From contig OY760067.1 of the NCBI GenBank assembly GCA_963662985.1, positions 1,502,100-1,566,099 of the forward strand: a stretch of DNA of 64,000 nt. The letters are read 5' to 3'. Every line of letters begins with the position of its first letter. Position 1 is the first letter of the stretch. Under the pieces are notes generated by a model that had not been told where the DNA came from, made no database searches, and saw only the letters and a program-made list of their open reading frames with translations. Made by a program: the position numbers and the translations under genes. Of this stretch, positions 5,647-61,230 are shown piece by piece. Source of the DNA: Anaerolineales bacterium (lineage in GTDB: Bacteria > Chloroflexota > Anaerolineae > Anaerolineales > UBA11579).

Positions 5647-7449
5647 TTAGACTGCTTTCACCATTTCTTTTACAAAGCATTCTAAAACATCGCCTTCTTT
5701 ATAATCGCTGAAACCCTTAATCCCAACGCCACATTCGTAACCTTCACGAACTTCTTTGACATCTTCAATTTCATGTTTTAAAGAAACGATTTCATCTTTA
5801 TAAATTTCTTTTCCATTACGTAAAACACGCATAAAACCATTTCGGCGCAGTTCACCTTTGGTCACACGGCAACCAGCAATATTTCCTAATTTTCGAATAC
5901 GGAAAACTGCACGCACTTCAGCTTGGCCAACCACAACTTCACGTTCTTCAGGTTCAAGCATCCCCTTAAGCGCTTTTTCAACATCTTCAATCAAGCGGTA
6001 GATAATATTATAATTTCGGACTTCAATGCCTTCATGATCTGCCAAAATAGAAGCCGCGTTATCCGTAGTAACATTGAACCCCATCACAATCGCCTTTGAA
6101 GCAACAGCCAAAGAAATATCATTTTCTGTAATGTTCCCAGTGCCAGAGTGTAAGACTTTCACCTTAATTGTGCCTTCTTTGTCATTGGCACTAATATCTT
6201 CCAAAGAAGAAATAATGGGTTCCAAAGATCCTTGCACATCTGCTTTCACAATCAAGCGCAACTCACGCACCTGGCCAGCTTGGAATTGATCAAACATTGA
6301 TTCCAAAGTCAAACTACCAGAGGGTGTGTTTGCAGATTCTTTTTCTTTCTCAAGTTTTTCACCGATAATATTTCGAGCTTCTTTATTGGAATCAACTGTA
6401 TAGAAAATATCACCAGCAGAAGGAACTTCGTTCAAACCTAAAACAGAAATAGGAGTTGAAGGTCCTGCTTCTTCAATTGGGTTTCCTCGATAATCGAACA
6501 TAGCGCGAACACTACCATACCCATTCCCAGCGATAAGGATATCGTTCTTGCGCAAAGTTCCATTTTGCACCAAAATCGTGGCAATAATCCCACGATGGCT
6601 GTCTTTTTCAGCTTCAATCACGGTACCTAACACTTTACCATTAGGATTAGCAAAAATCTCAGTATCATCTGCTACTAAAGTGATTGCTTCCAACAAATCA
6701 TCCAACCCGCTTCCTTGTTTAGCAGAAACAGGGATTACCATCGTATCACCGTCCCAATCATCAGGAATCAAACCAACTTCAGAAAGTTGTTGTTTAACAA
6801 AGTTAGGATTTGCATTTTGTTTATCAATCTTATTCAAAGCCACAATGATCGGCACTTGAGCAGCGCGTGCATGTGCCAAAGCTTCTTTTGTTTGCGGCAT
6901 CACACCATCATCAGCTGCCACCACCAAAATCACAACATCTGCCCCTTGTGCCCCACGAGAACGCATCGCAGTGAATGCAGCATGCCCTGGAGTGTCCAAG
7001 AAAGTGATCAATTTATTATTATGTGTGATTTGATAGGCACTAATATGTTGCGTAATCCCACCAACTTCGCCAGCTTGCACACTAGTTTCTCGAATAGCAT
7101 CTAATAATGAAGTTTTACCATGATCGACGTGTCCCAAAATTGTAACCACAGGAGGACGTCTCTGAAGATCAGCATCATCCTCATTTGCAATCATACGTCG
7201 CCAAAGCGGAATTTCATTTTCATCTGCTTGTAATTGTTCGATTTTTTCAAGTTCAACGTTATAGCCCAATTCAACAGCCACAATTTCAGCGGTTTCATAA
7301 TCAATTAATTGATTGATGTTGGCCATCACGCCATTTTGCATCAAGGTTTTGATAATTTCAATCGGATTCGTGCCTAATTTTTCAGCTAAATCTCTCACTG
7401 ACAAACTAATAGGGAGCTCAATCACTTGGCTTTTCTTATTCTTGCTCAT
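5647..7449 (-). CDS. infB: Translation initiation factor IF-2 (short form, 600 aa)
   Basis: G-domain motifs [20 protein letters not shown] and NKID. The C-terminal IF-2 domains are present. Confidence 0.95.
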
Positions 7450-7543
7450 CTTGTTTCTCCTTTTTCTTATAGTAATCCTTGAAGAAAAAAGTCAAAACGA
7501 TAAACTTTTATTCATTCGTTTCAAACGGTTTGCTTCAGGCAAG

Positions 7544-7822
7544 TTATTCTAAATGTTCTGAAATAGTATCTTTATAAGTCAGCAGACGACTTTTATCATC
7601 ATCCGTTAACTGGGTTTTTAAGGATCGAGCCAATGAACCACTCAATCCTTTTTCCCAACAACTTATATCATTATGTAAATAGGCACCTCGACCAGACATT
7701 TTACCGGTTGGATCCACAAAAACTCCATCTTGTGTGCGGACAATACGCACTAGTTCGCGTTTTTCAATCACTTCACGACATCCAACACAAGTTCGTTGCG
7801 GTCGGTGTTTTTTCTTTGTCAA
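7544..7822 (-). CDS. ylxR: YlxR/DUF448 family RNA-binding protein
   Basis: 92 aa. RTCVGCREVIEKRELVRIV...GRGAYLH. Sits in the conserved position between nusA and infB. Confidence 0.85.
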   Translation of the reverse strand: MTKKKHRPQRTCVGCREVIEKRELVRIVRTQDGVFVDPTGKMSGRGAYLHNDISCWEKGLSGSLARSLKTQLTDDDKSRLLTYKDTISEHLE

Positions 7823-7848
7823 GGATACCTCCTTATTTTATTTAACTA

Positions 7849-9771
7849 TTAATAATTCCATTCATCGTTCCAATCATCAATGTCCCAATCGCTGTTGCGT
7901 TTGCGGCGACGTTTCACGATAGTCACATCGTTTTCAGGATCATATTCGATTTCACGATATTTCTTCTTAGATTGTTTTTTATCCTTTTTACCATCATCAT
8001 CAAAGATTTTTTCAATATCATCTTCTGATTCGGCGCGTTCAAATTCTTCAATGGAAATGTCAACCATTGGTTTGTCTTCACCTTCAACGCCTTCTTGAGC
8101 CATTGCTTGTTCAATAGAAGCAATCACATCTTCGATGTCTTGTTCTTCAACAATTTCAGCAATCTCTTCGCTTTCATCTTCTACAGCATCAGCAACTGTT
8201 TCTTCGACAGATTCTTCTGCTTCGGCAGTTTCCACAACTTCTTCAGCCTTAGCTTCTTTAATTGCTTCTGGGAATTCAAAATTATCAATGGCAGTTTGAA
8301 TATCTGCCAAAATCTCTTTAGTAATACCACTAATATTACTAATTTTTTTAGGTGCCAAAGTCAATTCTTCCATCAATTCGCCAATAGTAGAATAACCTTC
8401 CCCTGAAATCATATTAGAAACTCGCAATGAAATCCCCAAATCTTCCAAAGGAAGATCAAAAGCGATTGCAGGAATAGTAGCGCGGATTTTATCAATGCGT
8501 TTTCGTTCTGCTTCCAAAGCTTGTTTGCGGCGTGAGCTTGCTTTGCTTTCCACTTCATCCACAAATCGAGCCATATGAGTATATTCTTCTGGAGATACAG
8601 GGCGATTTTCTTCTTTTCGAGCAAGAATGCTTTCAATCACAGGAATTTCATCCGCCAATTCTTTTGCTTGATTTGCATATTCAGGATTATTTGCCAATTT
8701 ATTCAAAGCGCTAGATGTTGCTTCAGGCAAACTCTTAATATCAATTCTCCATGAAGTTAAACGTGCGGCCAAACGCGCATTTTGTCCATTAGCACCAATA
8801 GCCAAACTCAATTGATCTTCTGGCACCACCACAGTAGCGGTTTTAATATCTTCATTTTCATCCAGATAAACACCTGTCACACGAGCAGGGCTAATTGCTT
8901 TAGAAATATAAACCTCAGGGTCAGAACTCCACTCAATCACGTCGATCTTTTCATCATTTAACTCACGCACAATTGCTTGGATGCGCACACCACGCAAACC
9001 AACACATGCACCCACAGGGTCAATCCCTTGTTGCAATGCTGAAACAGCAATCTTAGATCGATAGCCCGGTTCGCGGCTAATCGAGCGAATCTCAACCAAA
9101 CCTTGATAAATTTCTGGCACTTCATCTTCCACCAAGCGGCGTAAGAAATCTCGGTGTGCACGGGAGAGCACAATTTGCGGTCCACGAGGAGTCATCTTCA
9201 CTTCTTGCAAGAGCACACGAACGCGATCATGCATCTTGAAACGTTCACCAGGAATTTGATCCTTGCGATTCATTTCACCTTCAGCTTTGCGGTCCAAACC
9301 CAAAGTAACTTTATTAGGATTGAAAGACTGCACCACACCATTGATCACTTCACCTTCATGTTCTTTAAAATAATCATATTGGGTTTGACGTTCTGCTTCT
9401 CGAATTCTTTGTTGGATCACTTGACGTGCATTTTGAGCAGCCACGCGGCCAAAATCTTCAGGGGTTGATTCCACCATAATGATGTCATAAAGTTCCACAT
9501 CAGGATCATACTTTTTGGCTTCTTCAATCGACACTTCGGTATCAGGGCTAATCACTTCATCAACAACTTCTTTTTCGGCAAAAATTAATGCAGATCCGTC
9601 CACAAAATTTAAACGAGCTTCAATTTTTTGTGCATTGGAGGCATTCATCGTCTTTCGATATGCAGACACCATCGCAGCTTCAATAGCTTCTCGAATCACT
9701 TCTTGTGGAAGTTGTCGATCATTCAAAACTTCATTGAATGCCAACAAAAATTCTTTCTTCATGTTTTCCAC
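7849..9771 (-). CDS. nusA: Transcription termination/antitermination factor NusA with a long C-terminal extension
   Basis: 640 aa. The N-terminal domain, S1 and KH regions are present (GVVQSFNPNKVTLGL..., IDPVGACVGLRGVRIQAIVREL, LAIGANGQNARLAARLT). These are followed by an HhH-like region and a tail of about 140 aa, acidic then basic. Confidence 0.95.
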   Translation of the reverse strand: MENMKKEFLLAFNEVLNDRQLPQEVIREAIEAAMVSAYRKTMNASNAQKIEARLNFVDGSALIFAEKEVVDEVISPDTEVSIEEAKKYDPDVELYDIIMVESTPEDFGRVAAQNARQVIQQRIREAERQTQYDYFKEHEGEVINGVVQSFNPNKVTLGLDRKAEGEMNRKDQIPGERFKMHDRVRVLLQEVKMTPRGPQIVLSRAHRDFLRRLVEDEVPEIYQGLVEIRSISREPGYRSKIAVSALQQGIDPVGACVGLRGVRIQAIVRELNDEKIDVIEWSSDPEVYISKAISPARVTGVYLDENEDIKTATVVVPEDQLSLAIGANGQNARLAARLTSWRIDIKSLPEATSSALNKLANNPEYANQAKELADEIPVIESILARKEENRPVSPEEYTHMARFVDEVESKASSRRKQALEAERKRIDKIRATIPAIAFDLPLEDLGISLRVSNMISGEGYSTIGELMEELTLAPKKISNISGITKEILADIQTAIDNFEFPEAIKEAKAEEVVETAEAEESVEETVADAVEDESEEIAEIVEEQDIEDVIASIEQAMAQEGVEGEDKPMVDISIEEFERAESEDDIEKIFDDDGKKDKKQSKKKYREIEYDPENDVTIVKRRRKRNSDWDIDDWNDEWNY

Positions 9772-18954: not shown

Positions 18955-21288
18955 TTACTCTTCTAGCACCTTAACATACTTATTCTTATCTTTGAACCAT
19001 TCAATTATGATATTTGTCCCTTCATATAATTCAGATTCAATATCAAAACTAGCATTGATCAATTTAGCTCTTTCATACATCCCAGCAATTCCAAAATGTC
19101 TTTTTTGGATTAATTGATTGATCGTTACAGCATCAATTGAAGAAAAGTCAATATCAAGGTCCATACCTTTTCCATCATCAGAGATTTCAATCAATATATA
19201 ATCTTCTTCCAAACGACCATATAATGTTATTTCATCTGCTTCAGAATGTGCTAAAGCATTATTGATACCTTGTTGGATCATTCGATAAAGATTCAATTTC
19301 AATTTCTCATCATATCGAAAATCATTTTTTGATTCATAAAAAATATTATTATGAACTTGAATCTTTTTTGTTTGATTGATTTGGAAACAATAGTCTTCGA
19401 TTGAATTATACAAAGGATATTCTTGCATTGGTGGGCGCAGACCTGAAATAGTGTTCCGAATTGAATTTGTAATTGTTTCAAAAAACTCACTCGTTTTCTC
19501 ATCCAATGTATATTGCTCTTCGACATGTTCTTTGAGCAAAGCAAATTCATTCAAGACTGTATCATGTAACTCTCTTAGGATATATGATTCTTGAGCATCT
19601 TCTCGATTAACGCGAATTTGATACATTGATTGAATATGTTGTGTTTGATAAATACTAGAAATCTTCATTGCAATTTGAATGGAGATAACATCAAGTGTTT
19701 CTATCAAATCATAACTAAAAACATCATCTGGAGAATGTTCGCCAATCAACCACCATCCATAAAATGAATCAGAAGTCTTAATAGGAAGGATTAATCGAAT
19801 CCACCCATATTTTGAATTTGATATAAATACATCTTCTAATGGTTGTTTAACTTGTAATTCAGTTAATTTTTCTCGACTAGGAATGAAATTTTCTTGATTA
19901 ATATTAATTTCTTGATAATCATCTTTGAAATCTGATATTAACACAATAATGGATTGATCAATTAAAAGGTCTGTTGTGAGATTTTTTTGAATTAATTGTT
20001 TTAATTCATCAATTGATTCTTGTTGTGATATTTGTTCTGAATATAAATTGATTACATTATCTATGGGGTAAATAGTACCTAAGAATTTTGCACTAACCCA
20101 TTTAACAAATGGAATGTAATTAAATGTAGAAGCTATTGAAATGAGTAATATCAAGAACAACAAAATGATAATCAAAATTGGACTGAATTCAAAAAATATT
20201 AAAAGAACGCTCAATGTTATCGCAATAAAAATTAAGAGGATAGAAAAATACATATAACTTGCAATTAATGGATTTTTTCTTAATTTATATTTTCCAACTT
20301 CTCTTTTGAATAAAATATTTAAGTAAGCTAAAGGAAGCATTGGCAAGAGCACAAGTGATAACCCAAAATCCGGGAAATTTTCAAAACTAAAAATAAGACT
20401 GATAAATAATTGTGGAATAAGAATGATTGACCATGTCAAAATGATAAATAGAATGTCATTGCGATTTTTCTTATTTTTGAAAAATTTATAAACTAATATT
20501 CCTAAAGATCCTAAAATAGCGATAAACAAACCAAAAGAATATAAAAATGAGCCAATCAATTTAAATATTTGCAAACCACTCAATACGATAAAAGGCAAAA
20601 ATAAGCCAATAATGATTCTTTTATCAATTTTGGGCTTATGAATACCTATCAATGAATGTAGTAATAAATAACATGGAATAGATAACCAAAAAGCGACGCG
20701 GAAAACGATTCCTGCAGAGTACATTCGATAAATAGCCATTCCACCTGTCGTTAACCAAATGGATGTTAAATAAGAAGTTGCGATTAAAACTTTCCATTCA
20801 ATGTTTCTAGGGCGGATTACAAAAAATGCAAATGTGCCAATTATCCAAAATAAGATTCCAACAAGATACATATTGGGAAATCTGTTTTTGAATTCTTCAA
20901 AAATAAAAGATTGATTTTTGATCTTAAAATTGAGAGTTTCGTCACCCCTTTGGATTTCAAAGTCTACTTGAGCACCTTTAGGTTGATTTGAAAATATTTC
21001 ACCATATGGATCATTTAAAAAATCTTCATATGCAATCGAATTAATGGATATGACTTGATCACCGATTTTAATTGGAATCTTATCAGAATAGATTTTAGTA
21101 ACAACGCCTTTATTTTCTAAGTGAAATCCATAATATGCTGAGAAGAATAACAAAGTTATAGAGTAAGTTAGAACAATTAAAAGGATGGCAAAAGGAAGTA
21201 ATAGATTAATTTTGTTTATTATTTTTTTCAATTTGGTCACCTGTTTTCTTTTAATTGTATCAAATTTTATAGAAAGGAGAATAATCAT
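18955..21288 (-). CDS. Polytopic sensor histidine kinase, HisKA_3/HATPase_c type (ComP-like); start uncertain
   Basis: The N-terminal ~430 aa contains many hydrophobic helices. The C-terminus has RELHDTVLNEF (H-box), NALAHSEADEI, DDGKGMD and HFGIAGMYERA. The track ORF reaches 21417 only by reading through a palindrome. I use Met44 (21288); GTG at 21240 is an alternative. Confidence 0.8.
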   Translation of the reverse strand: MIILLSIKFDTIKRKQVTKLKKIINKINLLLPFAILLIVLTYSITLLFFSAYYGFHLENKGVVTKIYSDKIPIKIGDQVISINSIAYEDFLNDPYGEIFSNQPKGAQVDFEIQRGDETLNFKIKNQSFIFEEFKNRFPNMYLVGILFWIIGTFAFFVIRPRNIEWKVLIATSYLTSIWLTTGGMAIYRMYSAGIVFRVAFWLSIPCYLLLHSLIGIHKPKIDKRIIIGLFLPFIVLSGLQIFKLIGSFLYSFGLFIAILGSLGILVYKFFKNKKNRNDILFIILTWSIILIPQLFISLIFSFENFPDFGLSLVLLPMLPLAYLNILFKREVGKYKLRKNPLIASYMYFSILLIFIAITLSVLLIFFEFSPILIIILLFLILLISIASTFNYIPFVKWVSAKFLGTIYPIDNVINLYSEQISQQESIDELKQLIQKNLTTDLLIDQSIIVLISDFKDDYQEININQENFIPSREKLTELQVKQPLEDVFISNSKYGWIRLILPIKTSDSFYGWWLIGEHSPDDVFSYDLIETLDVISIQIAMKISSIYQTQHIQSMYQIRVNREDAQESYILRELHDTVLNEFALLKEHVEEQYTLDEKTSEFFETITNSIRNTISGLRPPMQEYPLYNSIEDYCFQINQTKKIQVHNNIFYESKNDFRYDEKLKLNLYRMIQQGINNALAHSEADEITLYGRLEEDYILIEISDDGKGMDLDIDFSSIDAVTINQLIQKRHFGIAGMYERAKLINASFDIESELYEGTNIIIEWFKDKNKYVKVLEE

Positions 21289-21379
21289 GGAAACAATTCG
21301 TTTTATTGAAGAATTAAGCAATATTGAAGTCGAAGAAGCTCGCAATGAAACAGAAAACGGTTGGTTTGATTGGGCATAG
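21287..21379 (+). CDS. 30-codon ORF, candidate ComX-like pheromone precursor (METIRFIEELSNIEVEEARNETENGWFDWA)
   Basis: Strong SD AAAGGAG (21273-21279) 7 nt before the ATG. It has an acidic leader and a Trp-containing C-terminus. A stem-loop follows, and the polyprenyl-synthetase-fold gene lies 70 nt downstream. Confidence 0.45.
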   Translation: METIRFIEELSNIEVEEARNETENGWFDWA

Positions 21380-21396
21380 TCCTGATTAAAGCTACA

Positions 21397-21427
21397 AAAA
21401 GCTAGCTTGATTTTCAAGCTAGCTTTT
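21397..21427. promoter_or_regulatory. Perfect 14-bp inverted repeat (terminator/attenuator or operator)
   Basis: AAAAGCTAGCTTGA (21397-21410), loop ttt, TCAAGCTAGCTTTT (21414-21427). It lies between the small ORF and the ComQ-like gene. Confidence 0.6.
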
Positions 21428-21448
21428 CATACTTCGGAAAGGATAAAA

Positions 21449-22414
21449 ATGATAGAAAAAAAAGCGACTGAAATTGCATTAAATTATCTACTTCATGAAG
21501 ATTTTCCTCAATTAATTAAATGGTTTACGGTAAATCGCGTTGATATGATAAAAGCTGGTTGTCTTGCAGTGGGAGGTGAAATTTCAAATCTTTCTGAAGC
21601 AATTGCAGCAGTATGTTGTATTCATATGGGAATCAAAATAATTGACGATCTAATTGATGAAGATCAAAGAGGAATTCAAGCTGAAGTCGGTGTAGGTCAG
21701 GCCGCTAATGCAGCGTACATATATCAAGCAACGGGGATAAAAATTATTTTAGAATCAAATTATCCATATGATCAAAAAATGAAAGTAATTGATTATTTGA
21801 TTCATTTTTCAAAAATAACATCAATCGGTCAATATTATGATGCAACACAAATATCAACAATAAATAATTTCTATCATGCACTCGAATTAAAAAGTGGTCC
21901 TCTTTTTGGGGATTGTATGAGAATAGGCGCTGTCGTATCCAATGCGACAGAAGAAGAAACACAAACTCTTTATCAATTAGGAGTAATTTACGGATATCTC
22001 ATACAATTGAATGATGATTTATCAGATACATTTGCAACCCCAGCATCAAATGATTGGTTACCAAACAGAACAAACCTTCCTTTATTATATGCAAGTAATT
22101 TACCACATGAAAAACAAATACGATTTAATCAGATAAGAAACCAAGTATTTGATTCAGAAACAATGTTGGCAGAAGCGCAACAAATATTAATTTCTAGTGG
22201 TGCTTATTTTAAAGTAATTGAAGATATTATATGGCAATCATATTTATTTCATGATCTTTTAGAAAAATCTTCCTTAAACAATAAACAACCCCTTGAAGAG
22301 TTGTTAATTGAACTAATGGATCCTGTTATTAAAAAAATTAATAAGCTAAAGCTAACTTTTGACTATCAAGAATTAGAGAGTTGGGTTATCAATCGGCGGA
22401 GGCAAAATGCCTAA
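21449..22414 (+). CDS. Polyprenyl-synthetase-fold protein (ComQ-like)
   Basis: Both Asp-rich motifs are present: KIIDDLIDEDQRG and YLIQLNDDLSD. I cannot find the N-terminal GGKRxR motif typical of chain-elongating synthases. I chose the start at MIEKK, which has the SD GGAAAGGA. Confidence 0.8.
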   Translation: MIEKKATEIALNYLLHEDFPQLIKWFTVNRVDMIKAGCLAVGGEISNLSEAIAAVCCIHMGIKIIDDLIDEDQRGIQAEVGVGQAANAAYIYQATGIKIILESNYPYDQKMKVIDYLIHFSKITSIGQYYDATQISTINNFYHALELKSGPLFGDCMRIGAVVSNATEEETQTLYQLGVIYGYLIQLNDDLSDTFATPASNDWLPNRTNLPLLYASNLPHEKQIRFNQIRNQVFDSETMLAEAQQILISSGAYFKVIEDIIWQSYLFHDLLEKSSLNNKQPLEELLIELMDPVIKKINKLKLTFDYQELESWVINRRRQNA

Positions 22415-23062
22415 TTGCTGTGCTTTCGCCACAGCTGCTGAACGATTGCTAACGTCTAACCTTGCATATGCTCTTGAAAAAGTATTACGGACGGTTGAAG
22501 GAGCCATATTTAAAATTCCAGCAATCTCTTCCATTTTATATTCTGGGTGAGCAGCTGCCAAACTAAGCACATTCATCATTTTTCCAGAAAGATCAGGTGT
22601 TTTTTTTCGAACATTTTCTGGGTTAATTAATTCATATGTTTCTTGTGAGAAAAAGACACCACCAGTTGAAATAGCAGTCACAATATTATTTAAGTTGTGG
22701 ATATTCTCTGAATCATCCTTTACGATATATCCTGAAGCGCCAGCTTTCATTAAGCTCTTAATCATAGATGGCTGGCTATACATTGAGACAACTAAAATTA
22801 ACACTTTTGGAAAATCTCGTTTAATATCTTCAATATATTTAATGATAGGATATCTATTATTATTTGTTTTGCTAACAGGCACACCTATATCTAAAATCAA
22901 AACATTTATATCATTTGACTTTAACATAGGCATTAACTCTTCAGCATATTGTACAGAAGCAACTACTGATATATTATTGTCTTGTTCTAATCTATATCGA
23001 TACCCATCAGAAATTATTATATGGTCATCTAGAATGCCTACATTAATCATTTTTTTCATCAC
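22373..23062 (-). CDS. NarL/LuxR-family response regulator (ComA-like)
   Basis: 229 aa. REC domain (VGILDDH..., NVLILDIGVP) plus a C-terminal LuxR HTH (KMEEIAGILNMAPSTVRNTFSRAYARLDV). Confidence 0.9.
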   Translation of the reverse strand: MMKKMINVGILDDHIIISDGYRYRLEQDNNISVVASVQYAEELMPMLKSNDINVLILDIGVPVSKTNNNRYPIIKYIEDIKRDFPKVLILVVSMYSQPSMIKSLMKAGASGYIVKDDSENIHNLNNIVTAISTGGVFFSQETYELINPENVRKKTPDLSGKMMNVLSLAAAHPEYKMEEIAGILNMAPSTVRNTFSRAYARLDVSNRSAAVAKAQQLGILPPPIDNPTL

Positions 23063-45905: not shown

Positions 45906-46607
45906 TTATTGAATGAGGGAGAGGTAGTGATTGAGGACCCCGAAGGCGAAAAGGAGCTGGCCGAGTTGATAGAAGATACGGCTGATGAGGCGCGTGTATT
46001 TGTGTTCGATGACCCATTGACGATAGCCGAGTAATGAGTCGGCGTAGAACATGGAGAAGGCTCCAAGGGCGGCAAAGTAGGAGAATAAGGGGTTGCTCTT
46101 CCAGAGGAAGAAGGAGCTGATGGCACGGTAGAGGGTGGAGGAGATGACGATGAGGTAGAGTAGGGAGGGAGCGTATAGGTCAAGGATTTTGCGCGCATTC
46201 ATGACCCGTTGGAGGAGATAGGCGAAGAAGATGACAACGGGAACAAAGAAGATGGCGAGGAAGATGCTGGGCGCGAGGGTGCTGGATTGGAAGACGGGGG
46301 TGATGGCGAGGTTATAGGCGATGTGGGCGAGGAGGAAGAGGAAAAGACCGAGTTTGAAGGGACGTTTGGGGAGCATGAGGGTGATGTCTCCGGCGAGGGA
46401 GAAGGCGAGGCCAATGAGCACCCAAAGGATGTTGCCTGCGGAGGTGCCGATGAATTTGGTGTTGCCGATTTGAATGAAGGCGGTGATGAGGATGGCGATG
46501 ATGACGAGCGGTTTGGTGATGTAGCCAAGTTTGATTTTTTTTGTTTGTAGGGCGTACCAGTCGGCGACCATGATGAGCAGAACTGGGAGTAGGAGTAGGT
46601 AGTTCAT
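45906..46607 (-). CDS. YhhN-family membrane protein (lysoplasmalogenase-like)
   Basis: 233 aa polytopic protein with a YhhN-like layout (KPLVIIAILI..., LAFSLAGDITLM..., FYADSLLG). The coding strand is conspicuously C-rich. Confidence 0.65.
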   Translation of the reverse strand: MNYLLLLPVLLIMVADWYALQTKKIKLGYITKPLVIIAILITAFIQIGNTKFIGTSAGNILWVLIGLAFSLAGDITLMLPKRPFKLGLFLFLLAHIAYNLAITPVFQSSTLAPSIFLAIFFVPVVIFFAYLLQRVMNARKILDLYAPSLLYLIVISSTLYRAISSFFLWKSNPLFSYFAALGAFSMFYADSLLGYRQWVIEHKYTRLISRIFYQLGQLLFAFGVLNHYLSLIQ

Positions 46608-46643
46608 GAGGATCCTTTGCGCGCTGTGCGAGGGGTTGGTGGG

Positions 46644-47570
46644 CTAGTCTTGTTTGCCGTAGCCGAAGCGATCTAGGAAGGCGTCGTCGTTGCGCCAGTT
46701 TTTGCGGACTTTGACTCGTAGGCGGAGGAAGACTTTGCGGCCGCTCATGGCTTCGATAGAATTGCGAGCGGAGGAGCCGATGCGTTTGAGCATTTCGCCT
46801 CCTTTGCCGATGACGATGCCTTTTTGGGAGTCACGCTCGACGAAGAGAGTGGCTTCGACATAGGCGCCGTGGTCTTCGCGTTCGGTATATTCGTCTACAC
46901 GGACGGCGATGCCGTGGGGGACTTCGTCTTTGAGGAGGATGAGGGCGGCTTCGCGGATGAGGTCGGCGGCGATGTCGCGTTCGTAGAGATCGGTGATTTG
47001 ATCTTCTGGGTAGAGTGGGGGACCTTCGGGGAGCATTTCGATGATTTGTTGGGTGAGCTCGGCGATGCCAAGGCCTTTGCGTGCGGCGATGGTGATGCTT
47101 TGGGAGGCGGGGACGAGGGCTTGGTATTCTTGGATGCGGGCGGCGAGCTTGGTTTGGTCTGGGACGAGATCGAGCTTGTTGATGACGAGGAGGAGGGGGG
47201 TGGTGAGGTTGGCTTCGTGAATGGCTTCAGCGATGATGAAGTCTCCTTCTTGGGGTGGGGTGCTGGCGTCTACGAGGAAGAGGATGAGGTCGTTTTCTTC
47301 TAGGGTGGAGAGGGCTTCTTCGTTCATTTTTTCGCCGAGTTTGTGTTTGATTTTGTGGACGCCGGGGGTGTCTACGAAGATGAGTTGGGCTTGGTCTTCT
47401 AGGGTGAGGATGCCGAGTTGGTTTTTGCGGGTGGTTTGGGGGCGAGGGGAGACGGCGGCGATTTTTTGCCCGAGGAATTTGTTTAGGAGGGTGGATTTGC
47501 CGGCATTTGGTTTGCCGATGATGCTGATATAGCCAGCACGATAGTTGTTGTTTTGGGTATTTTCTGTCAT
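46644..47570 (-). CDS. era: GTPase Era
   Basis: GKPNAGKSTL, DTPGVH, NKLD, and the C-terminal KH domain (IVIGKGGEMLKRIG). Confidence 0.95.
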   Translation of the reverse strand: MTENTQNNNYRAGYISIIGKPNAGKSTLLNKFLGQKIAAVSPRPQTTRKNQLGILTLEDQAQLIFVDTPGVHKIKHKLGEKMNEEALSTLEENDLILFLVDASTPPQEGDFIIAEAIHEANLTTPLLLVINKLDLVPDQTKLAARIQEYQALVPASQSITIAARKGLGIAELTQQIIEMLPEGPPLYPEDQITDLYERDIAADLIREAALILLKDEVPHGIAVRVDEYTEREDHGAYVEATLFVERDSQKGIVIGKGGEMLKRIGSSARNSIEAMSGRKVFLRLRVKVRKNWRNDDAFLDRFGYGKQD

Positions 47571-47636
47571 AGGTGTATTATACAGGTAATTGAGGGAAAG
47601 GAATATGGGTTTTGGGATATGAGGTTGTTTGGGCCC

Positions 47637-47664
47637 TTGCTTGTGGGGCAGGTTGGTTTATAAT
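47637..47664 (+). promoter_or_regulatory. Putative sigma-70 promoter of tRNA-Ser
   Basis: TTGCTT (47637-47642), a 16-nt spacer, then TATAAT (47659-47664). It ends 10 nt before the tRNA 5' end. Confidence 0.5.
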
Positions 47665-47673
47665 ACGACGGAT

Positions 47674-47762
47674 GGAGAGGTGCCAGAGTGGTTTAATGGG
47701 GCGGTCTCGAAAATCGTTGTAGTGCGCTAGCGCTACCGTGGGTTCGAATCCCACCCTCTCCG
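47674..47762 (+). tRNA. tRNA-Ser, anticodon CGA
   Basis: I folded it by hand. The acceptor stem is GGAGAGG/CCTCTCC. The D-stem is 3 bp with a GG loop. The anticodon loop is CTCGAAA. The long variable arm has a 7-bp stem. The T-arm is GTGGG-TTCGAAT-CCCAC. The discriminator is G, and no CCA is encoded. Confidence 0.88.
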
Positions 47763-47817
47763 CTGTTTTCTTTTTTCCCATTTTTTGTTTTGAATTTTTT
47801 AAGGTTGTTTTTTTTGG

Positions 47818-47910
47818 GTTGCCAGAATGTGCCAAGGCGGGTTTTGTTTGGTGCAGGAGGTGCCCTGGGGTGGGTTTTGCTGTGCCAGATGGTGCCAGGG
47901 TTTTGGGCGA
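47818..47910. repeat. Three degenerate ~31-bp tandem units just 3' of tRNA-Ser
   Basis: Units start at 47818, 47849 and 47880. Each has a (T/G)GTGCC(A) core followed by a GGGTTTTG tail. Unit 3 (GTGCCAGATGGT) resembles the tRNA D-arm segment GTGCCAGAGTGGT. Confidence 0.5.
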
Positions 47911-48110
47911 AGTGTGTTATTTAGTGCTTGAATTGCTTTTTAATTCTTTATTTAAATATAAAATGTATTTTTATATTATTTCTAAAATCTAGTTATATTT
48001 TTATTAAGTTATTATATCTTATTTCAGTTTTGGGCGCTGAGAAAAAAAGTGATGGAGTTGTTTTTTTGGTGTGTTTTTTCCCAGTGGGGGTGTTTGATTT
48101 TGTTAAGGTA

Positions 48111-48160
48111 CAGAACGTATGTTCTGTTTATATTATAGCGGATGTGTGGGGTTTTGTCAA
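48111..48160 (-). promoter_or_regulatory. Consensus sigma-70 promoter overlapped by a perfect LexA (Cheo/SOS) box
   Basis: On the minus strand: TTGACA (48155-48160), a 17-nt spacer, TATAAT (48132-48137). CAGAACGTATGTTCTG (48111-48126) contains GAAC-N4-GTTC across the expected transcription start. Confidence 0.6.
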
Positions 48161-48430
48161 ATTTAGGGGATGGTGAGAGGAGTTGTTTTCGTCTGTGTCG
48201 CTGGAGAAGATGGTGATTCCTAGGTAGGGTTGGTATTGCATGTCTTTGCCGGTGAGGGTGTCTAGGGTGGATTGGATATCTGCGAGGGTTTTGGGCATAG
48301 GCTTGTTGGGCATTGAGGGCTGCGACGGTTTGGGCTACGCTTAGTTCTGCGGTTTGGTCGTTGGTTTGTTGATCGCTGTTGTTGCCACAGGCGTATAAAA
48401 TTAAAAAAATACAATACCCCCTACGAGCAT
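48128..48430 (-). pseudogene. Degraded lipoprotein gene remnant
   Basis: Pieces sit in different frames. They are MLVGGIVFF*, then ...FLILYACGNNSDQQTNDQTAELSVAQTVAALNAQQAYAQ, then MPKTLADIQSTLDTLTGKDMQYQPYLGITIFSSDTDENNS. At least two frame breaks are present, one at a T7 run. Confidence 0.3.
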
Positions 48431-48582
48431 CGTTTTGTTTGTCAAATTTGTTTGGAGGAAGTTTTGGTTTGTTGTTATAATTTGGGCTATCAATGGTTTG
48501 GAGTGGGTTATATGATGACTTTCTTTTTTTTTTATTTTTTAATTTGCATTGGGGATATGTGGGTTTTTGATGAGGAGGATTT

Positions 48583-49229
48583 ATGGGGTTGGCTGATTAT
48601 AATAAGAAGTTTGATTTTAAGGATTTCTTTATTTTACTAATTTTAATATTGATTTGTGAATCGTCTTTATTGTTTGAATTTTTACTTGAAAAAGAGATAA
48701 GACTTTATATATGGAAATATTCATTTATTTTTGATTTGCTTTTTATTATCTTATTGCTTTTGAATAAAATAATAAAAAGCAATATTTTTTATACTATAGC
48801 TACTTAGCTACTTTTTTTAACCCTGCTTTTCGTCTTATGTTTAACTTAGCTTTTGGATTAATAATACGTTTTTTTGGTTTTAATTATTCATGGTTTATTC
48901 CTATAGTTATTATTTATTTCTCAATTTATCTTTTGATTTTAATTCCAGATGATAAATTAGTTATTATTAATAAATTTTTTGTTGATAGTAAAGTGATAAG
49001 TATTGGATTAGTTTTGCTTGGTTTTTTCATTGCTTTTGATAATAACAGGTATGTACTTCGATATAAGGTGCCTGGTAGTTTTAGAGAGATGTCTGGAATT
49101 CTTAGGGCTGGAATAGGAGTAATTATTTTAAATTTTTATTTTATAGTTTTGGCTGTTTCAAGTATAAAGAAATCGTATAAGAAATTCGATAATGAGAAAT
49201 TGCGGAAGAAAGGTTTTGTTGAGGAATGA
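48583..49229 (+). pseudogene. Array copy 1 (type A) of the six-TM paralog family, disrupted by an 8-bp tandem duplication
   Basis: Track ORFs 48583-48807 and 48837-49229 join into one full-length homolog of copies 3 and 5 if the second TAGCTACT (48805-48812) is removed. Confidence 0.8.
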
Positions 49230-49251
49230 GTGGGGTTTTGGAGGAGGATTA

Positions 49252-49896
49252 ATGGGATTTGCTGATTACACAAAAAAAATTACTTTAAAAGAAATTTTAT
49301 ATTTCTTTTTAATAACTTTTGGAACAGAGTCCGTTTTAATTTTTACATTTATGCTAGATAAAAATATACGAATTCAAATTTGTAAGTTTAATTTTTTATT
49401 TGATTTTATTTATTTTTTTTTACTATTGATAAACAAATACTTAAAGAGTAATTCGATATATATAATTTCACTTTATTTCACTTCAGCTTTTCGTATGATT
49501 GCAAATATGGCTATTGTTTTTATAATTTATTCGATAGGTTTTAGCTATGATTGGTTTTTACCTTTAGTTATCATTTATAGTTTATTTTGGCTTCATTTAC
49601 TATTTCCAGCAGATCAATTAAAAAAAATAAACACTTTTTTTATAGAAAGTAAAATTGTAAAAATAGTTTTGTTGATTCTGATTTCAATAACTATTTTTGG
49701 AAATAATCGTTATGCAATAAGATATAAAAGTATTGAAAGTATAAATTCAGGATTTTTATGTTTTGGATTAGGAACTATTATTTTTAATTATTACTGGATT
49801 ATTTCAGGAATTACTTCAGCAAAAGAATCGATAAAAATTTTTGAAAATAGAAAATTAAAGTTGGAAGAAAGAGAAGCAGAAGTTGTTGAGGGATGA
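49252..49896 (+). CDS. Array copy 2 (type B), ~214-aa six-TM protein of unknown function
   Basis: MGFADYTKK... N-terminus, SD GGAGGAGGA, and type-B C-terminus ENRKLKLEEREAEVVEG. Confidence 0.75.
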   Translation: MGFADYTKKITLKEILYFFLITFGTESVLIFTFMLDKNIRIQICKFNFLFDFIYFFLLLINKYLKSNSIYIISLYFTSAFRMIANMAIVFIIYSIGFSYDWFLPLVIIYSLFWLHLLFPADQLKKINTFFIESKIVKIVLLILISITIFGNNRYAIRYKSIESINSGFLCFGLGTIIFNYYWIISGITSAKESIKIFENRKLKLEEREAEVVEG

Positions 49897-49921
49897 AAGA
49901 GGGGTTTGAGAAGGAGGATTT

Positions 49922-50560
49922 ATGGGGTTAGCTGATTATAATAAGAAGGTTGATTTTAAGGATTTATTTTATTTAATATTATTAACTATCTTTTGTGAAT
50001 CATTTTTATTTTTAACATTTATGATAGAAAAGAAAATTCGGAGTCAAATATGGAAGTATTCAATTGTATTCGATTTATTCTTGTTTATATTATTAATTTT
50101 GAATAAAAAATTTAAAAGTAATTTATTATATTTTTTAGCATCAATTTTTTTACCAGTTTTGAGACCATTGTTTATTATGGGAATTGTATTAATTATAAGG
50201 ACAATTGGATTTGATTTCTCTTGGTTTATTCCAATTGTAATTTTTTATTTTTCTATTTGGTTTTTGCTTTTTTTACCTTCTGATAAATTAGAAACTCTTA
50301 ATAATTTTATTGTCAATAGTAAAGTAGCGTCAATTATATTATTTTTTATTATCGCATTTAGCATTTTTGATAATAACAGATATATAGTGAGATATAAAAT
50401 ACCAGGAAGCATTAGAGAAATTTCAGGTGCTATTAGATTAGGGTTTGGTTTAATAGTATTCAATTATTATTTTATTTTATTAGTCGTTACAGCTTTAAAA
50501 AGATCAAGTATAAAATTCACTGATGAGAAATTGCGGAAGAAAGGTTTTGTTGAGGGGTAA
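49922..50560 (+). CDS. Array copy 3 (type A), 212-aa six-TM protein of unknown function
   Basis: MGLADYNKK... N-terminus, SD AAGGAGGA, and type-A C-terminus DEKLRKKGFVEG. Confidence 0.75.
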   Translation: MGLADYNKKVDFKDLFYLILLTIFCESFLFLTFMIEKKIRSQIWKYSIVFDLFLFILLILNKKFKSNLLYFLASIFLPVLRPLFIMGIVLIIRTIGFDFSWFIPIVIFYFSIWFLLFLPSDKLETLNNFIVNSKVASIILFFIIAFSIFDNNRYIVRYKIPGSIREISGAIRLGFGLIVFNYYFILLVVTALKRSSIKFTDEKLRKKGFVEG

Positions 50561-50584
50561 GTGTTTTTTTGATGAGGAGGATTT

Positions 50585-51229
50585 ATGGGATTGCCTGATT
50601 ATACAAAAAAACTTAATTTAAAAGATTTTATATATTTCTTTTTATTAACAATTGGAACTGAATCGACTTTATTGTTTGCATTTATGCTGGAGAAAAATAT
50701 TCGTATTCAAATATGGAAGTATTCAATATTGCTTGATTGTATTTGTATATTTTTATTAATAATAAATAAATTTTTAAAGAATAAATATGTTTATATTTTG
50801 GCAAGTTTTTTTGCACCAGTTTTACGTATGATCTCGAATATGAGCATAGTTTTTATAATTTACTCAATTGGATTTAGTTATAAATGGTTTTCAATTGTAG
50901 TAATACTATATTGTTTAATTTGGTTATTTTTACTTTTTCCAAAAGATCAATTAAAAAAAATAAACACATTTTTTGTTGAAAGTAAAATTGTAAAAATAAT
51001 TTTATTGATAGTAATTCTAATTGCAATTTTTGGAAATAATCGTTATGCAATAAGATATAAAAGTATTGAAAGTATAAATTCAGGATTTTTACGTTTTGGA
51101 TTAGGATTTACTGTATTTAATTATTACTGGATAATATTAGGAGTTACTTCTATTAAGGAATCAATAAAAATATTTGAAAATAGAAAATTAAAGTTGGAAG
51201 AAGGAGGAGTAGAAGTTGTTGAGGGATGA
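50585..51229 (+). CDS. Array copy 4 (type B), 214-aa six-TM protein of unknown function
   Basis: MGLPDYTKK... N-terminus. It shares an identical 60-nt stretch with copy 2 (49699-49758 = 51032-51091). Confidence 0.75.
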   Translation: MGLPDYTKKLNLKDFIYFFLLTIGTESTLLFAFMLEKNIRIQIWKYSILLDCICIFLLIINKFLKNKYVYILASFFAPVLRMISNMSIVFIIYSIGFSYKWFSIVVILYCLIWLFLLFPKDQLKKINTFFVESKIVKIILLIVILIAIFGNNRYAIRYKSIESINSGFLRFGLGFTVFNYYWIILGVTSIKESIKIFENRKLKLEEGGVEVVEG

Positions 51230-51251
51230 AAGAGGGGTTTGAGGAGGATTT

Positions 51252-51893
51252 ATGGGATTGCCTGATTATAATAAAAAACTAACCTTTAAAGATTTTTTTG
51301 TTTTATTATTATTGGTTTTTTTATCTGAATCTTTGTTATTGTTAGCATTTTTACTAGAAAAAGAAATTCGAATTCAAATATGGAAATTTTCATTTATATT
51401 TGATCTTATATTCTTTTTATTATTATTAATAAATAAAATTATTAAAAGTAATGTAATTTATACAATTGCTACAATTTTTAACCCATCCTTTAGAGCAGTT
51501 ATAAATTTAGCTCTTATTATTCTTATTCGATATATCGGATTTAATTATTCTTGGTTTATTCCAATAGTGATAGTATATTTTTCCATGTATATTTTAATTT
51601 TTTTACCTGAAGATAAATTAGAAAGTATTAAAACGTTTTTTTTAGATAGTAAAGTGATATCAATAGGTTTATTTTTACTTTTTCTTTTCAGCTCAATAGG
51701 TAATAATAGATATGTTGTAAGATATAAAGTCCCTGGAAGCTTTAGTGAATTATCAGGTGCTGTTAGGTTGGGAATAGGTTTATTGATTATAAATTATTAT
51801 TTTATGATATTAGCTTTAACTACAATAAAAATCTCGTACAAACAATTTAATGATGAAAAATTGCTGAAGAAAGGTTTTGTTGAGGAATTATAG
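51252..51893 (+). CDS. Array copy 5 (type A), 213-aa six-TM protein of unknown function
   Basis: MGLPDYNKK... N-terminus and type-A C-terminus DEKLLKKGFVEEL. Confidence 0.75.
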   Translation: MGLPDYNKKLTFKDFFVLLLLVFLSESLLLLAFLLEKEIRIQIWKFSFIFDLIFFLLLLINKIIKSNVIYTIATIFNPSFRAVINLALIILIRYIGFNYSWFIPIVIVYFSMYILIFLPEDKLESIKTFFLDSKVISIGLFLLFLFSSIGNNRYVVRYKVPGSFSELSGAVRLGIGLLIINYYFMILALTTIKISYKQFNDEKLLKKGFVEEL

Positions 51894-51953
51894 AGGGGTT
51901 TAATAAATATAATTCTCATTTCTTTCTGATTAATTTAAGGGTAGAAATTAAGG

Positions 51954-52773: not shown

Positions 52774-52827
52774 TGAAGTTGATTGAAAAAAAATAATAAG
52801 GATATTTAGGCGAGGATTTCAGTGTTT

Positions 52828-53652: not shown

Positions 53653-53668
53653 AATTTGACAATTTTTT

Positions 53669-53694
53669 GACTGCCCTTGAGGCAGTCTTTTTTT
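53669..53694 (+). terminator. Intrinsic terminator closing the AT-rich island
   Basis: GACTGCC-cttga-GGCAGTC followed by TTTTTTT. Confidence 0.8.
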
Positions 53695-54958: not shown

Positions 54959-55057
54959 ATTTCAAATAGTAGCACTTAATGAGTAAAACGGAAAGTTTTT
55001 AGTTTCGGGGAATGATATTATGATTTAGTAATATAAAAAATTAATGTATGGTAATAT

Positions 55058-58828: not shown

Positions 58829-58925
58829 ATTTTGGCTTGGTATATGGTTGAGATAGCGTTTTTTTTGATTCTGAAAAAAAATATCGATGCTTGCCATGGG
58901 GGGGAGTTCGTGATTAAATTGATTT

Positions 58926-61218: not shown

Positions 61219-61230
61219 GGTTGATTATGA

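Follow-up and report, generated by a model that had tools for sequence, protein, structure and literature searches.

Does a member of the Chloroflexota, a phylum in which, to our knowledge, peptide signalling has barely been described, encode a peptide-pheromone system related to ComQXPA of Bacillus subtilis? The question is raised by four genes in a 64-kb stretch of DNA from an uncultured Anaerolineales bacterium (the window): a sensor histidine kinase gene (18955-21288, minus strand), a small open reading frame X (21287-21379, plus strand), a prenyltransferase-like gene Q (21449-22414, plus strand) and a response regulator gene (22373-23062, minus strand). The original prediction regarded them as the ComQXPA parts list in a scrambled Bacillus gene order. 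All four ORFs were found intact at these coordinates and the parts list was confirmed, the four genes forming one conserved unit. The order is not scrambled, since kinase (minus), X, Q and regulator (minus) is the norm of the family.

Conservation and layout of the cassette

A search for the same four-gene neighbourhood in relatives, as the original prediction had suggested, revealed about 45 loci, nearly all of them in Chloroflexota MAGs. With three or four components each, these loci cover several orders of the phylum. At least 16 show a divergent kinase followed by X, Q and a convergent regulator, and about 21 show X and Q followed by a co-directional kinase. Neighbourhood comparison of the family loci found no recurring neighbour of Q beyond X and the sensor module. 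Nor do these loci share a processing protease or exporter close to the cassette, and this absence counts against a pheromone system. The locus has a GC content of 29-31%, below that of its flanks, and is syntenic and vertically inherited within the clade of the host.

The precursor gene X and the enzyme Q

X encodes a 30-codon precursor peptide, METIRFIEELSNIEVEEARNETENGWFDWA. The strong Shine-Dalgarno sequence and the Trp-containing C-terminus predicted for it are both present: AAAGGAG (21273-21279, plus strand) lies 7 nt before the ATG and is kept in relatives, and the peptide ends in W-x-x-W-x, with Trp residues at positions 26 and 29 and one residue after the last Trp. X is conserved in the relatives, with substitutions mostly at third codon positions and pairwise dN/dS values of 0.10-0.42, and this purifying selection indicates that X is a real gene. 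Moreover, an ORF of 30-70 residues ending in WxxW or WxW is located immediately 5' of Q in 43 of 46 loci, compared with 2.3% of 9014 background ORFs. X was also predicted to be like ComX; however, it falls outside the ComX family, as PF05952 yielded no match to X against 26.3 bits for the Bacillus ComX control, and hhalign gave only 1.7%. The lack of detectable similarity of X to ComX, as well as to the NHLP and Nif11 leader models, counts against the pheromone reading.

Q is a protein of 321 residues with a trans-isoprenyl-diphosphate-synthase fold and a predicted peptide Trp prenyltransferase. Pfam assigned it to PF00348 with 63.6 bits (E 2e-17). The two Asp-rich motifs that had been noticed are kept in the family, and correspond in Q to a FARM of D66-D67-x-x-D70-x-D72 and a SARM of D189-D190-x-x-D193, in addition to K148 and Q186. 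The reported lack of GGKRxR also holds, with GK[RK]xR found in none of 159 family representatives, and Q, like the rest of its family, has lost the GK lysines that follow the SARM. Q belongs to a discrete family (214 representatives at E<=1e-30), and NCBIfam synthase equivalogs score it at 14-40 bits, all far below their cut-offs of 275-600; the HepT model, for example, gives 32 bits against a cut-off of 456.

The assignment of Q as ComQ-type stands in part. Comparison of the Q and ComQ profiles yields 96.7% (E 4e-10, score 77), indicating remote homology, and the IPP-binding motifs are lost; however, Q is closer to canonical synthases, with a profile score of 113.6, and has the full DDxxD. 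The closest sequence and fold matches of Q are GGPP and long-chain synthases, and in Foldseek the GGPP synthases (TM 0.77) rank above the indole farnesyltransferase Ord1 (TM 0.66, rank 29). The profile score, the Foldseek ranking and the presence of all three canonical SARM aspartates in 141 of 159 family members count against a pheromone function. Pfam and JGI annotate Q as a polyprenyl or GGPP synthase, and no other isoprenyl synthase gene is found within the window.

The sensor kinase, the regulator and the intergenic elements

The kinase gene was delimited from its catalytic core, a TM scan, sensor conservation and the start codons in relatives. The start at 21288 is probably 16-19 codons too far upstream. 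As the relatives begin at GTG 21240 or TTG 21231, and a conserved promoter-like element lies within 21241-21288, one of these two codons is probably the start, giving a ComP-like kinase at 18955-21240 on the minus strand. The protein consists of TM1, a PDZ-like extracytoplasmic loop, about nine TM helices, a GAF-like cytoplasmic domain, a HisKA_3-type DHp and HATPase_c. A crude hydropathy scan places TM1 at residues 29-47, followed by a 92-residue loop and about nine further TM segments up to residue 389, in agreement with the large polytopic N-terminus that had been proposed. Pfam gives a weak PDZ_2 match at residues 72-124. At the C-terminus, predicted to be HisKA_3/HATPase_c, Pfam recognizes HATPase_c (E 9e-8), and the kinase best matches NCBIfam models of the HisKA_3 class, among them UhpB, NarQ, NarX and LiaS; however, Pfam HisKA_3 has no match in this kinase even at E<1, which again counts against the pheromone reading.

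BLASTP aligns the H-box and catalytic core with those of Bacillus ComP at 24% identity over 259 residues (E 6e-13). Alignment of the sensor half with the ComP sensor by hhalign yields 95.9% (E 5.9e-9) over 451 collinear columns, compared with 0.5% for the reversed control. The kinase is thus like ComP, as suggested, and its sensor is remotely homologous to that of ComP. Its topology matches the one published for ComP, which has ten TM helices and a first loop with a PDZ fold. The sensor module of about 510 residues adjoins Q in 41 of 44 loci, coupled to various outputs: HisKA_3-HATPase, HisKA-HATPase(-REC) or HD_5 (HD-GYP-type). X and Q therefore have as their constant partner a ComP-homologous sensor on varied outputs, as expected of a ligand-receptor pair.

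The regulator (22373-23062, minus strand) is a ComA-like protein of the NarL/LuxR class, composed of REC and a GerE-type HTH. Its predicted REC plus LuxR-HTH architecture is supported by Response_reg (E 5e-12), by GerE at 21.2 bits, slightly under the 23.5-bit cut-off, and by a full-length alignment with ComA (22% identity, E 1e-11); NCBIfam gives weak full-length matches to NarL-class regulators. ATG 23059 and GTG 23062 are equally likely starts. In 16 loci a regulator gene converges on Q. The 42-bp overlap of the two 3' ends in the window (22373-22414, coding on both strands) was noticed correctly; four relatives keep it, along with the tails of both proteins.

Two further elements lie between the genes. 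The 12-nt element ATTGTATCAAAT (21254-21265), located between the kinase gene and X, is invariant in four relatives while its flanks vary. It reads TGATACAAT on the minus strand, an extended -10, and might serve either as the kinase promoter or as an operator of the regulator. Between X and Q, a conserved stem-loop (21397-21427, plus strand) followed by a U-rich stretch has an MFE of -26.1 kcal/mol (z = -5.4) and 12 pairs, three of which show compensatory changes among the four relatives. It probably raises the X:Q ratio, either as an attenuating terminator or by stabilising the transcript.

Proposed function and comparison with known systems

We consider it likely that the cassette is a peptide-pheromone system of the ComQXPA type, forming a distinct Chloroflexota-wide family. 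X would be translated off its strong ribosome-binding site, and the hairpin 3' of X probably keeps it in excess over Q. Q retains the allylic-diphosphate/Mg2+ site (FARM and K148) and the Gln-x-x-Asp of indole prenyltransferases, with the IPP site lost, and would attach a prenyl chain (geranyl, farnesyl or longer) to the indole ring of either or both Trp residues of W-x-x-W. The lipidated C-terminal peptide would be freed by a putative protease and export route, and sensed, possibly in a density-dependent manner, through the PDZ-like extracytoplasmic loop and the TM bundle of its cognate receptor, the ComP-homologous kinase. Phosphorylation of the NarL/LuxR-type regulator would then alter transcription, and the cassette itself may be among the targets.

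It is doubtful, by comparison, that the product of X and Q is a lipidated RiPP, antimicrobial or surface-active, with the kinase and regulator only controlling its production, possibly through nisin-like autoinduction. Prenylated Trp peptides of the PalQ type are indeed classed among the RiPPs, and the activity of antimicrobial peptides prenylated by PalQ depends on prenyl chain length; the low GC content of the locus would also fit. However, the cassette has no conserved immunity gene, ABC transporter or protease alongside it, and the locus shows synteny and vertical inheritance. X and Q have a single constant partner, a sensor with homology to ComP, the receptor of ComX, coupled to differing outputs that include the HD-GYP type.

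We regard it as quite unlikely that Q is a small-molecule isoprenoid enzyme, for chain elongation or for prenylation of free indole or tryptophan, the product of which is the signal, with X being an unrelated small protein or a kinase regulator. Such an enzyme would agree with the full FARM and SARM, with the GGPP and long-chain synthases as nearest matches and with Ord1, in which the same fold prenylates free indole (PMC12510300), whereas the family-wide loss of GKRxR and of the GK lysines, as well as the low equivalog scores, argue otherwise. Three characterised relatives (ComQ, PalQ and StheQ) act on the neighbouring small peptide, at a Trp near its C-terminus. The WxxW-tailed upstream ORF, kept in 43 of 46 loci and under purifying selection, is hard to explain unless X is the substrate. 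Two-component pairs are ubiquitous, and an ordinary pair might simply adjoin a housekeeping polyprenyl synthase, the 30-codon ORF being no gene. The database names of Q and its being the only synthase in the window would suit this. However, the comparative data already contradict chance adjacency, which is highly improbable: the components occur together in about 45 loci of several orders, X has a Shine-Dalgarno sequence, third-position-biased substitution and an invariant motif, and Q forms a discrete family devoid of IPP-binding motifs.

The preferred pheromone system shares with ComQXPA the four-part list: the PF00348 fold of Q and ComQ, matched at profile level; the ComP architecture, with both termini inside, a PDZ-like first loop, about ten TM helices, a cytoplasmic linker and a HisKA_3-type core; the REC and LuxR-HTH of ComA; and a small precursor with Trp near its C-terminus. 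The Bacillus genes are ordered Q-X-P-A on one strand, whereas the Chloroflexota order is P(-), X, Q, A(-). X has two Trp residues in a conserved W-x-x-W and the ComX sequences compared have one, and ComQ carries the pseudo-SARM QISGDY / NDxxx where Q has the full DDxxD. Because X is not ComX, Q is nearer to canonical synthases with a full DDxxD and the gene order differs, the cassette is, judged by its sequences, a distinct, distantly related system and not a ComQXPA orthologue. A 2014 census found ComQXPA-type loci in Firmicutes only, whereas the present host belongs to the Chloroflexota; a related cassette recurs across a phylum with a scant record of peptide signalling.

Compared with the best sequence and structure matches, GGPPS, HepT and IspB, Q keeps the FARM, GQxxD, K(T/S) and SARM of chain-elongating synthases but lacks GGKRxR and the GK lysines, has a four-residue deletion after the SARM, and is linked to WxxW-peptide and sensor genes. 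Ord1 (PDB 9V4G/9V4J) has the same all-alpha-helical fold (E 1e-13 for Q against its PDB profile), and its catalytic Q216 and D219 correspond to Q186 and D189; it retains the upstream Gln and the first two SARM aspartates, with Ala at the third position. Ord1 acts on free indole in a small-molecule pathway with no precursor peptide or kinase (PMC12510300), whereas the cassette has X and a kinase. PalPXQ of Paenibacillus alvei combines a precursor with a histidine kinase and a prenyltransferase, and its X gene lies 5' of the Q gene as in the cassette. PalQ, of the isoprenoid-synthase superfamily, binds its precursor in a complex and prenylates the indole C3 of Trp; it clusters on its own, at a distance from the trans-IDS and ComQ families (PMC10853753). 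PalX carries an NHLP leader and requires its acceptor Trp to be the final residue, whereas X has one residue beyond its last Trp.

From the same phylum comes StheQ of Sphaerobacter thermophilus (Chloroflexi), an IPPS-fold enzyme with an adjacent small ORF containing two Trp near the C-terminus, StheX, whose second-from-end Trp it farnesylates (bioRxiv 10.64898/2026.08.29.745113). The residue numbering of StheQ fits none of the top 150 Q-family representatives, and StheQ is compared here by its published residues only. The spacing of FARM...K...Q-x-x-[N/D]-D-x-x-D is alike, K174/Q212 in StheQ and K148/Q186 in Q being 38 residues apart each. StheQ has D-E-x-x-D and a pseudo-SARM with N215, N215D losing 98% of the activity, whereas Q has the full DDxxD; N-to-D mutants of ComQ and StheQ at this first SARM position lose 90-98%. 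StheX (69 residues, tail WW-x) is reportedly encoded 3' of stheQ, whereas X (30 codons, tail W-x-x-W-x) is 5' of Q. The 2026 preprint concerns one ComQ-like Chloroflexi enzyme, not the present family or its receptor; it describes no receptor or regulator for StheQ, whereas the cassette includes genes for a predicted receptor and a regulator.

Organization and conservation of the cassette

The region 18955-23062 contains four ORFs, as the original prediction of a ComQXPA-like cassette had stated. The gene of a membrane histidine kinase (18955-21288 or 21240, - strand, ~760-777 aa) diverges from the 30-codon gene of the putative precursor peptide X (METIRFIEELSNIEVEEARNETENGWFDWA; 21287-21379, + strand), which has AAAGGAG upstream. 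The polyprenyl-synthetase-fold protein Q (21449-22414, + strand, 321 aa) follows, and a response regulator with REC and LuxR-HTH domains is encoded convergently (22373-23062, - strand), its 3' end overlapping that of the Q gene by 42 bp. The kinase ORF is present as predicted, but its start at 21288 probably does not hold, as relatives begin 16-19 codons further in, at the positions of GTG 21240 or TTG 21231. GC content in the cassette region is 29-31%, compared with ~38% in the flanks.

Q-like proteins are rare, forming 12 clusters in an index of 5.8 billion proteins. An HMM scan of 1.84 billion representatives revealed a discrete family of 214 representatives at E<=1e-30, beyond which the Q-profile scores drop towards ordinary synthases. 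Scanning of the GTDB species representatives yielded 39 loci, nearly all in Chloroflexota MAGs, from Anaerolineales, Ardenticatenaceae, Caldilineaceae, Promineifilaceae and "Chloroflexia". The best match is an Anaerolineales MAG with 79% identity and the same flanking genes, which places the window in this order. All relatives are derived from metagenomes, many of the loci coming from wastewater, sediment and mats. All-against-all clustering of the neighbours within 6 kb gave Q (44 loci), the sensor (41) and the regulator (16) as recurrent genes, and no conserved protease, exporter or immunity gene; the remaining clusters are antisense shadow ORFs. The four-gene neighbourhood proposed from the single contig therefore does recur in related genomes, and the cassette is a conserved family. 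The "scrambled" gene order of the original prediction is in fact the family norm, either P(-), X(+), Q(+), A(-) or X-Q-P(+). In the type A layout, that of the window, a divergent HisKA_3-type kinase, X, Q and a convergent NarL-class regulator are found, and the X tails tend towards W-[D/E/S/Q]-x-W. In the type B layout, X and Q are followed by a co-directional receptor, and the tails tend towards W-x-G-W.

Two Caldilineaceae loci, L039 (6948-9086) and L042 (6961-9126), are exceptions to the three-gene rule. X (...NRWGWW and ...NRWGWC) and Q are present in both, but the kinase next to Q is a MASE6-PAS hybrid kinase instead of a PDZ-type sensor in L039 and is also without the sensor module in L042. 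In the metagenomic protein P0120 (655 aa), the N-terminal 240 aa are Q-like and ~400 aa without a Pfam domain follow; a frameshift has probably joined the Q-like part to the sensor downstream, although the fusion may be genuine.

Scans of the locus for promoter and terminator consensus sequences returned sites no more frequently than in shuffled sequence, and conservation was used instead. In four relatives, the element ATTGTATCAAAT (21254-21265) is invariant; it lies between the divergent genes of the kinase and X, within a stretch that is non-coding up to 21288. It may be either the extended -10 of the kinase promoter, which reads TGATACAAT on the - strand, or an operator, being nearly palindromic. 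Between X and Q, a stem-loop at 21397-21427 (z = -5.4 in folding) is conserved in four relatives, and 3 of its 12 pairs show compensatory changes. The 42-bp overlap of the Q and regulator genes (22373-22414) is coding on both strands, and the corresponding protein tails, WVIxRRRQNA and GILPPPIDNPTL, are both conserved in four relatives. The two genes would thus be transcribed convergently through each other's 3' ends, so that antisense coupling is possible.

Two features of base composition were observed elsewhere in the window. After a tRNA-Ser(CGA) gene (47674-47763), the GC content falls to 23-29%, and this stretch (47674-53700 with the tRNA) may be an island integrated at the tRNA. It contains four tandem paralogous ORFs of 212-234 aa on the + strand (49192-49896, 49922-50560, 50585-51229 and 51252-51893), none with a Pfam match. 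The + strand of 46000-64000 combines a negative AT skew with a GC skew of +0.33 to +0.49, which is far above the expectation for bacterial genomes. Even where the ORFs are on the - strand, it is rich in G+T and very poor in C, as can be read directly from the sequence at 56000-56480.

The enzyme Q and the putative precursor peptide X

The search of Q against PF00348, the check put forward with the original prediction, yielded a match at 63.6 bits. The AF2 model of Q is all-alpha and adopts the trans-IDS fold (pLDDT 92.3). Foldseek placed GGPP synthases (TM 0.77) above the indole farnesyltransferase Ord1 (TM 0.66); the fold does not decide the function, because Foldseek fails to separate synthases from indole prenyltransferases. 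The first and second Asp-rich motifs of Q (FARM and SARM) are DDLIDED and DDLSD, and the residues D66, D67, D70, D189, D190 and D193 are invariant in the Q alignment. Q also keeps D72, K148, a GQxxD motif and Q186, which are invariant or nearly so. The full DDxxD SARM is found in the window Q and 141 of 159 family members. The lack of GGKRxR, noticed in the original prediction, was confirmed by alignment with the canonical synthase P0012, whose GKRIRP and GKPTGNDIREGK regions are both missing from Q, and GK[RK]xR occurs in none of the 159 family members examined. The same alignment shows a 4-residue deletion after the SARM, where both GK lysines are absent. NCBIfam equivalog models of synthases, including HepT, GGPPS, IspB and FPPS, scored 14-40 bits on Q against cut-offs of 275-600 (40 bits against 450 for the best, 32 against 456 for HepT). 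No other synthase was found in the 64-kb window.

ComQ prenylates ComX. A comparison set of real ComQ and ComP sequences and the Bacillus locus L052, with the order Q-X-P-A, was used to relate the cassette to this system. Q matched a profile of 12 ComQ sequences with an hhalign probability of 96.7% (E 4e-10, 172 columns), which, like the other hhalign values, rests on small alignments (Neff 2-4). It matched the canonical synthase better, at 98.6% (score 113.6), whereas ComQ barely matched the same synthase (24.6%). Therefore, Q is a less derived branch of the superfamily and not an orthologue of ComQ. The ComQ-type assignment is borne out by the fold, the profile match and the missing IPP motif, but not by the full DDxxD or by orthology.

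An upstream + strand ORF with a W-x-x-W (rarely W-x-W) tail is present in 43 of 46 non-redundant loci, counting motifs in the last 14 residues of ORFs that end no more than 700 nt upstream of Q, compared with a background of 2.3% among 9014 ORFs of these loci. In another locus, the motif is found 19 residues before the ORF end. Most peptides continue for 0-2 residues after the second Trp; W is the last residue in only 5 of 42 family precursors, and Gly stands directly before the second Trp in 17 of 39 peptides. The window X (30 aa) has W26 and W29 and ends W-A. This short form is that of the window's own clade; the other family precursors have 43-66 aa, all with a Trp-bearing tail, and the Bacillus ComX precursor has ~50-70 aa. 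In the putative N-terminal helix, the window X has IRFIEEL, and the longer peptides have M..F[H/Y]..L. Comparison of X with three relatives gave dN/dS values of 0.10-0.42, the changes being mostly at third codon positions.

The small ORF was originally described as ComX-like, and its conservation, its AAAGGAG and its Trp-bearing C-terminus agree with this, but a relationship to ComX itself was not found. PF05952 (ComX) gave no match at E<=10 for the window X and nine family precursors, the positive control Bacillus ComX reaching 26.3 bits against a cut-off of 25. A 42-sequence X alignment matched ComX with only 1.7% in hhalign, and no leader model in Pfam or NCBIfam matched X at E<=10. Since these searches were null, X is not assigned to ComX, NHLP or Nif11.

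Because a conserved WxxW peptide gene adjoins that of Q, together with the motif evidence, Q is predicted to be a Trp prenyltransferase, and Trp prenylation of X is its most likely activity. The full DDxxD of Q is a real difference from the known enzymes and the main internal caveat, because ComQ and StheQ, the enzyme of Sphaerobacter thermophilus, have Asn at the position of D189 and their N-to-D mutants lose 90-98% of the activity (bioRxiv 10.64898/2026.08.29.745113).

The sensor kinase and the regulator

When residues 1-540 of the kinase served as phmmer query, the neighbour of Q was matched in nearly all loci, with E values of 1e-20 to 1e-65. The sensor alignment revealed the motifs PFWLAGT, RPRDxRW, YLHLH, YAxYKRxLGxxEFRANRL and WVRLxIPL...GxWLFGRRDPDDxY. 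In the present scans, no Pfam or NCBIfam model matched this sensor-module family, which is newly defined here. A crude TM scan, which is not a topology predictor, placed TM1 at 29-47, followed by a 92-aa loop and ~9 further TM segments; the loop has a weak PDZ_2 match, and the same weak PDZ match is found in the ComP N-terminus. Pairwise BLASTP of the two N-termini gave no match and the sensor profile matched a single ComP sequence with 15.6%, only profile-profile comparison being informative here. Against the sensor profile of 12 ComP sequences, from which the catalytic 225 residues had been removed, hhalign gave 95.9% (E 5.9e-9) over 451 collinear columns that extend from the PDZ-like loop through the TM bundle into the cytoplasmic GAF-like domain, compared with 0.5% (E 0.11) for the reversed-sequence control. 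The H-box and ATPase region aligned with ComP at E 6e-13 in BLASTP. The ComP-like character of the kinase is thus upheld for both the sensor and the catalytic core, although the Pfam HisKA_3 match is below threshold; its class is assigned from NCBIfam matches to UhpB, NarQ, NarX and LiaS together with the BLASTP alignment. In the Bacillus reference locus L052 (CP051464.1), comP (6175-8501) is split into ORFs 6175-7104 and 7116-8501, which makes it a probable pseudogene of this strain.

Of 16 type B receptors, 15 join the sensor to HisKA-HATPase, some of them with additional PAS, GAF or REC domains, and one joins it to an HD_5 (HD-GYP-type) domain. In the latter, from an Anaerolineales MAG (L016, 6833-9316), the PDZ/TM/GAF sensor next to X and Q carries HD_5 (E 4e-39) in place of a kinase core, so that the same signal may have a c-di-GMP output. 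A sensor with a constant place next to X and Q but a variable output domain is the signature of a ligand-receptor pair.

The regulator was correctly described as ComA-like. It has a Response_reg domain (E 5e-12) and a GerE match of 21.2 bits, just under the 23.5-bit cut-off, and it aligns with ComA over the full length with 22% identity (E 1e-11).

Proposed circuit and comparison with known systems

From the observed co-conservation, homologies and motif content of the cassette, we infer the following mechanism. X would be made in excess from its strong ribosome-binding site, the hairpin before Q probably attenuating read-through. Q would bind the conserved N-terminal helix of X and prenylate W29 and/or W26, and the W-x-x-W core might be prenylated twice. 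The C-terminal lipopeptide would then be released; the cassette has no linked protease or exporter gene, and to our knowledge ComX in Bacillus is likewise without one. The released lipopeptide would bind the PDZ/TM sensor, upon which the kinase would phosphorylate the LuxR-type regulator.

Other readings of the same genes were weighed. X and Q could make a RiPP natural product, the two-component system merely regulating its production. The variable output of a constant sensor argues for a receptor of the peptide, and no immunity gene or exporter recurs, so that we consider the RiPP reading unlikely. Q might also be a small-molecule isoprenoid enzyme with X unrelated to it. The synthase-like fold and intact SARM are consistent with such an enzyme, the persistent Trp-tailed ORF and the loss of the IPP motif speak against it, and we regard this reading as more doubtful still. 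That the genes adjoin merely by chance has a negligible probability beside their recurrence across the family.

We give about an even chance to the reading that ComQXPA is not an invention of Firmicutes but one branch of an older prenyl-peptide signalling, of which filamentous Chloroflexota (Anaerolineales, Ardenticatenaceae, Caldilineaceae and Promineifilaceae) would hold a sister family with a double-Trp W-x-x-W core, a full SARM and a portable PDZ/10-TM sensor. In such a sister family, the ComP-type sensor would be coupled to kinases of the HisKA_3 type, to hybrid kinases with HisKA or to an HD-GYP-type domain, the last providing a c-di-GMP output if the domain is active. Chloroflexota are abundant, mostly uncultured filamentous bacteria whose cell-cell communication is barely known, and Trp-prenylated peptide pheromones have so far been regarded as particular to Bacillus and related bacteria. 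The putative signal, modifying enzyme, ComP-homologous receptor and regulator are all visible at sequence level and conserved across the phylum. If the sister-family reading is true, no complete circuit of peptide signalling between cells would have been proposed for Chloroflexota before this one. The prediction is directly testable with two small genes. Natural W-x-x-W substrates and full-SARM enzymes may be usable for peptide-lipidation biocatalysis, and the family offers evolutionary evidence on how an isoprenoid synthase became a peptide prenyltransferase.

A census of 2014 placed comQXPA-like loci in Firmicutes only (PMC4008528). Full-text search of the later literature found one relevant item, the August 2026 preprint on StheQ and its peptide StheX, which describes a single enzyme-peptide pair from Chloroflexi and suggests that it is linked to quorum sensing, with no receptor, regulator or family (bioRxiv 10.64898/2026.08.29.745113). 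In this search, W-x-x-W precursors, a full-SARM Q family, a ComP-homologous sensor family with swappable output and the two layouts were not found described; the search on ChrPC gave no lead.

Indole prenylation is known for four enzymes that share the fold of Q, namely ComQ, PalQ, StheQ and Ord1. Among the known systems, chain-elongating trans-IDS share FARM and SARM with Q, whereas GGKRxR and the post-SARM GK...GK lysines are theirs and missing from Q. ComQ has a pseudo-SARM, NDxxx or Q-x-x-[N,G,S]-D (QISGDY was seen), whereas Q keeps DDxxD. Ord1, whose substrate is free indole, uses the catalytic pair Q216 and D219, a Gln-x-x-Asp at the SARM start (PMC12510300), which is reproduced by Q186 and D189 of the window Q. 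StheQ modifies the adjacent StheX in Sphaerobacter, Chloroflexi (bioRxiv 10.64898/2026.08.29.745113). As in the window, an IPPS-fold enzyme lies there beside a small ORF with extreme C-terminal Trp residues, but StheQ has the pseudo-SARM N-D-x-x-D with X downstream, whereas the window Q has D189 with X upstream. None of the best 150 family representatives fits the published residue numbering of StheQ. In the kinase-X-Q cluster of Paenibacillus alvei, PalQ modifies the adjacent NHLP peptide PalX (PMC10853753); PalX has an NHLP-type leader and an obligatory C-terminal Trp, and the window X has neither. In a published model, ComP has 10 TM helices with both ends of the protein inside, and its first loop, of 85 aa, adopts a PDZ fold (PMC9620489); the window kinase fits this architecture of ~10 TM segments, a PDZ-like first loop, a HisKA_3-type core and HATPase_c. 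ComA has REC and the GerE/LuxR HTH in common with the window regulator. Finally, the Bacillus ComQXPA shares with the cassette a small Trp-tailed precursor adjoining Q, but its genes run Q-X-P-A on one strand, whereas those of the window are arranged P(-), X(+), Q(+), A(-).
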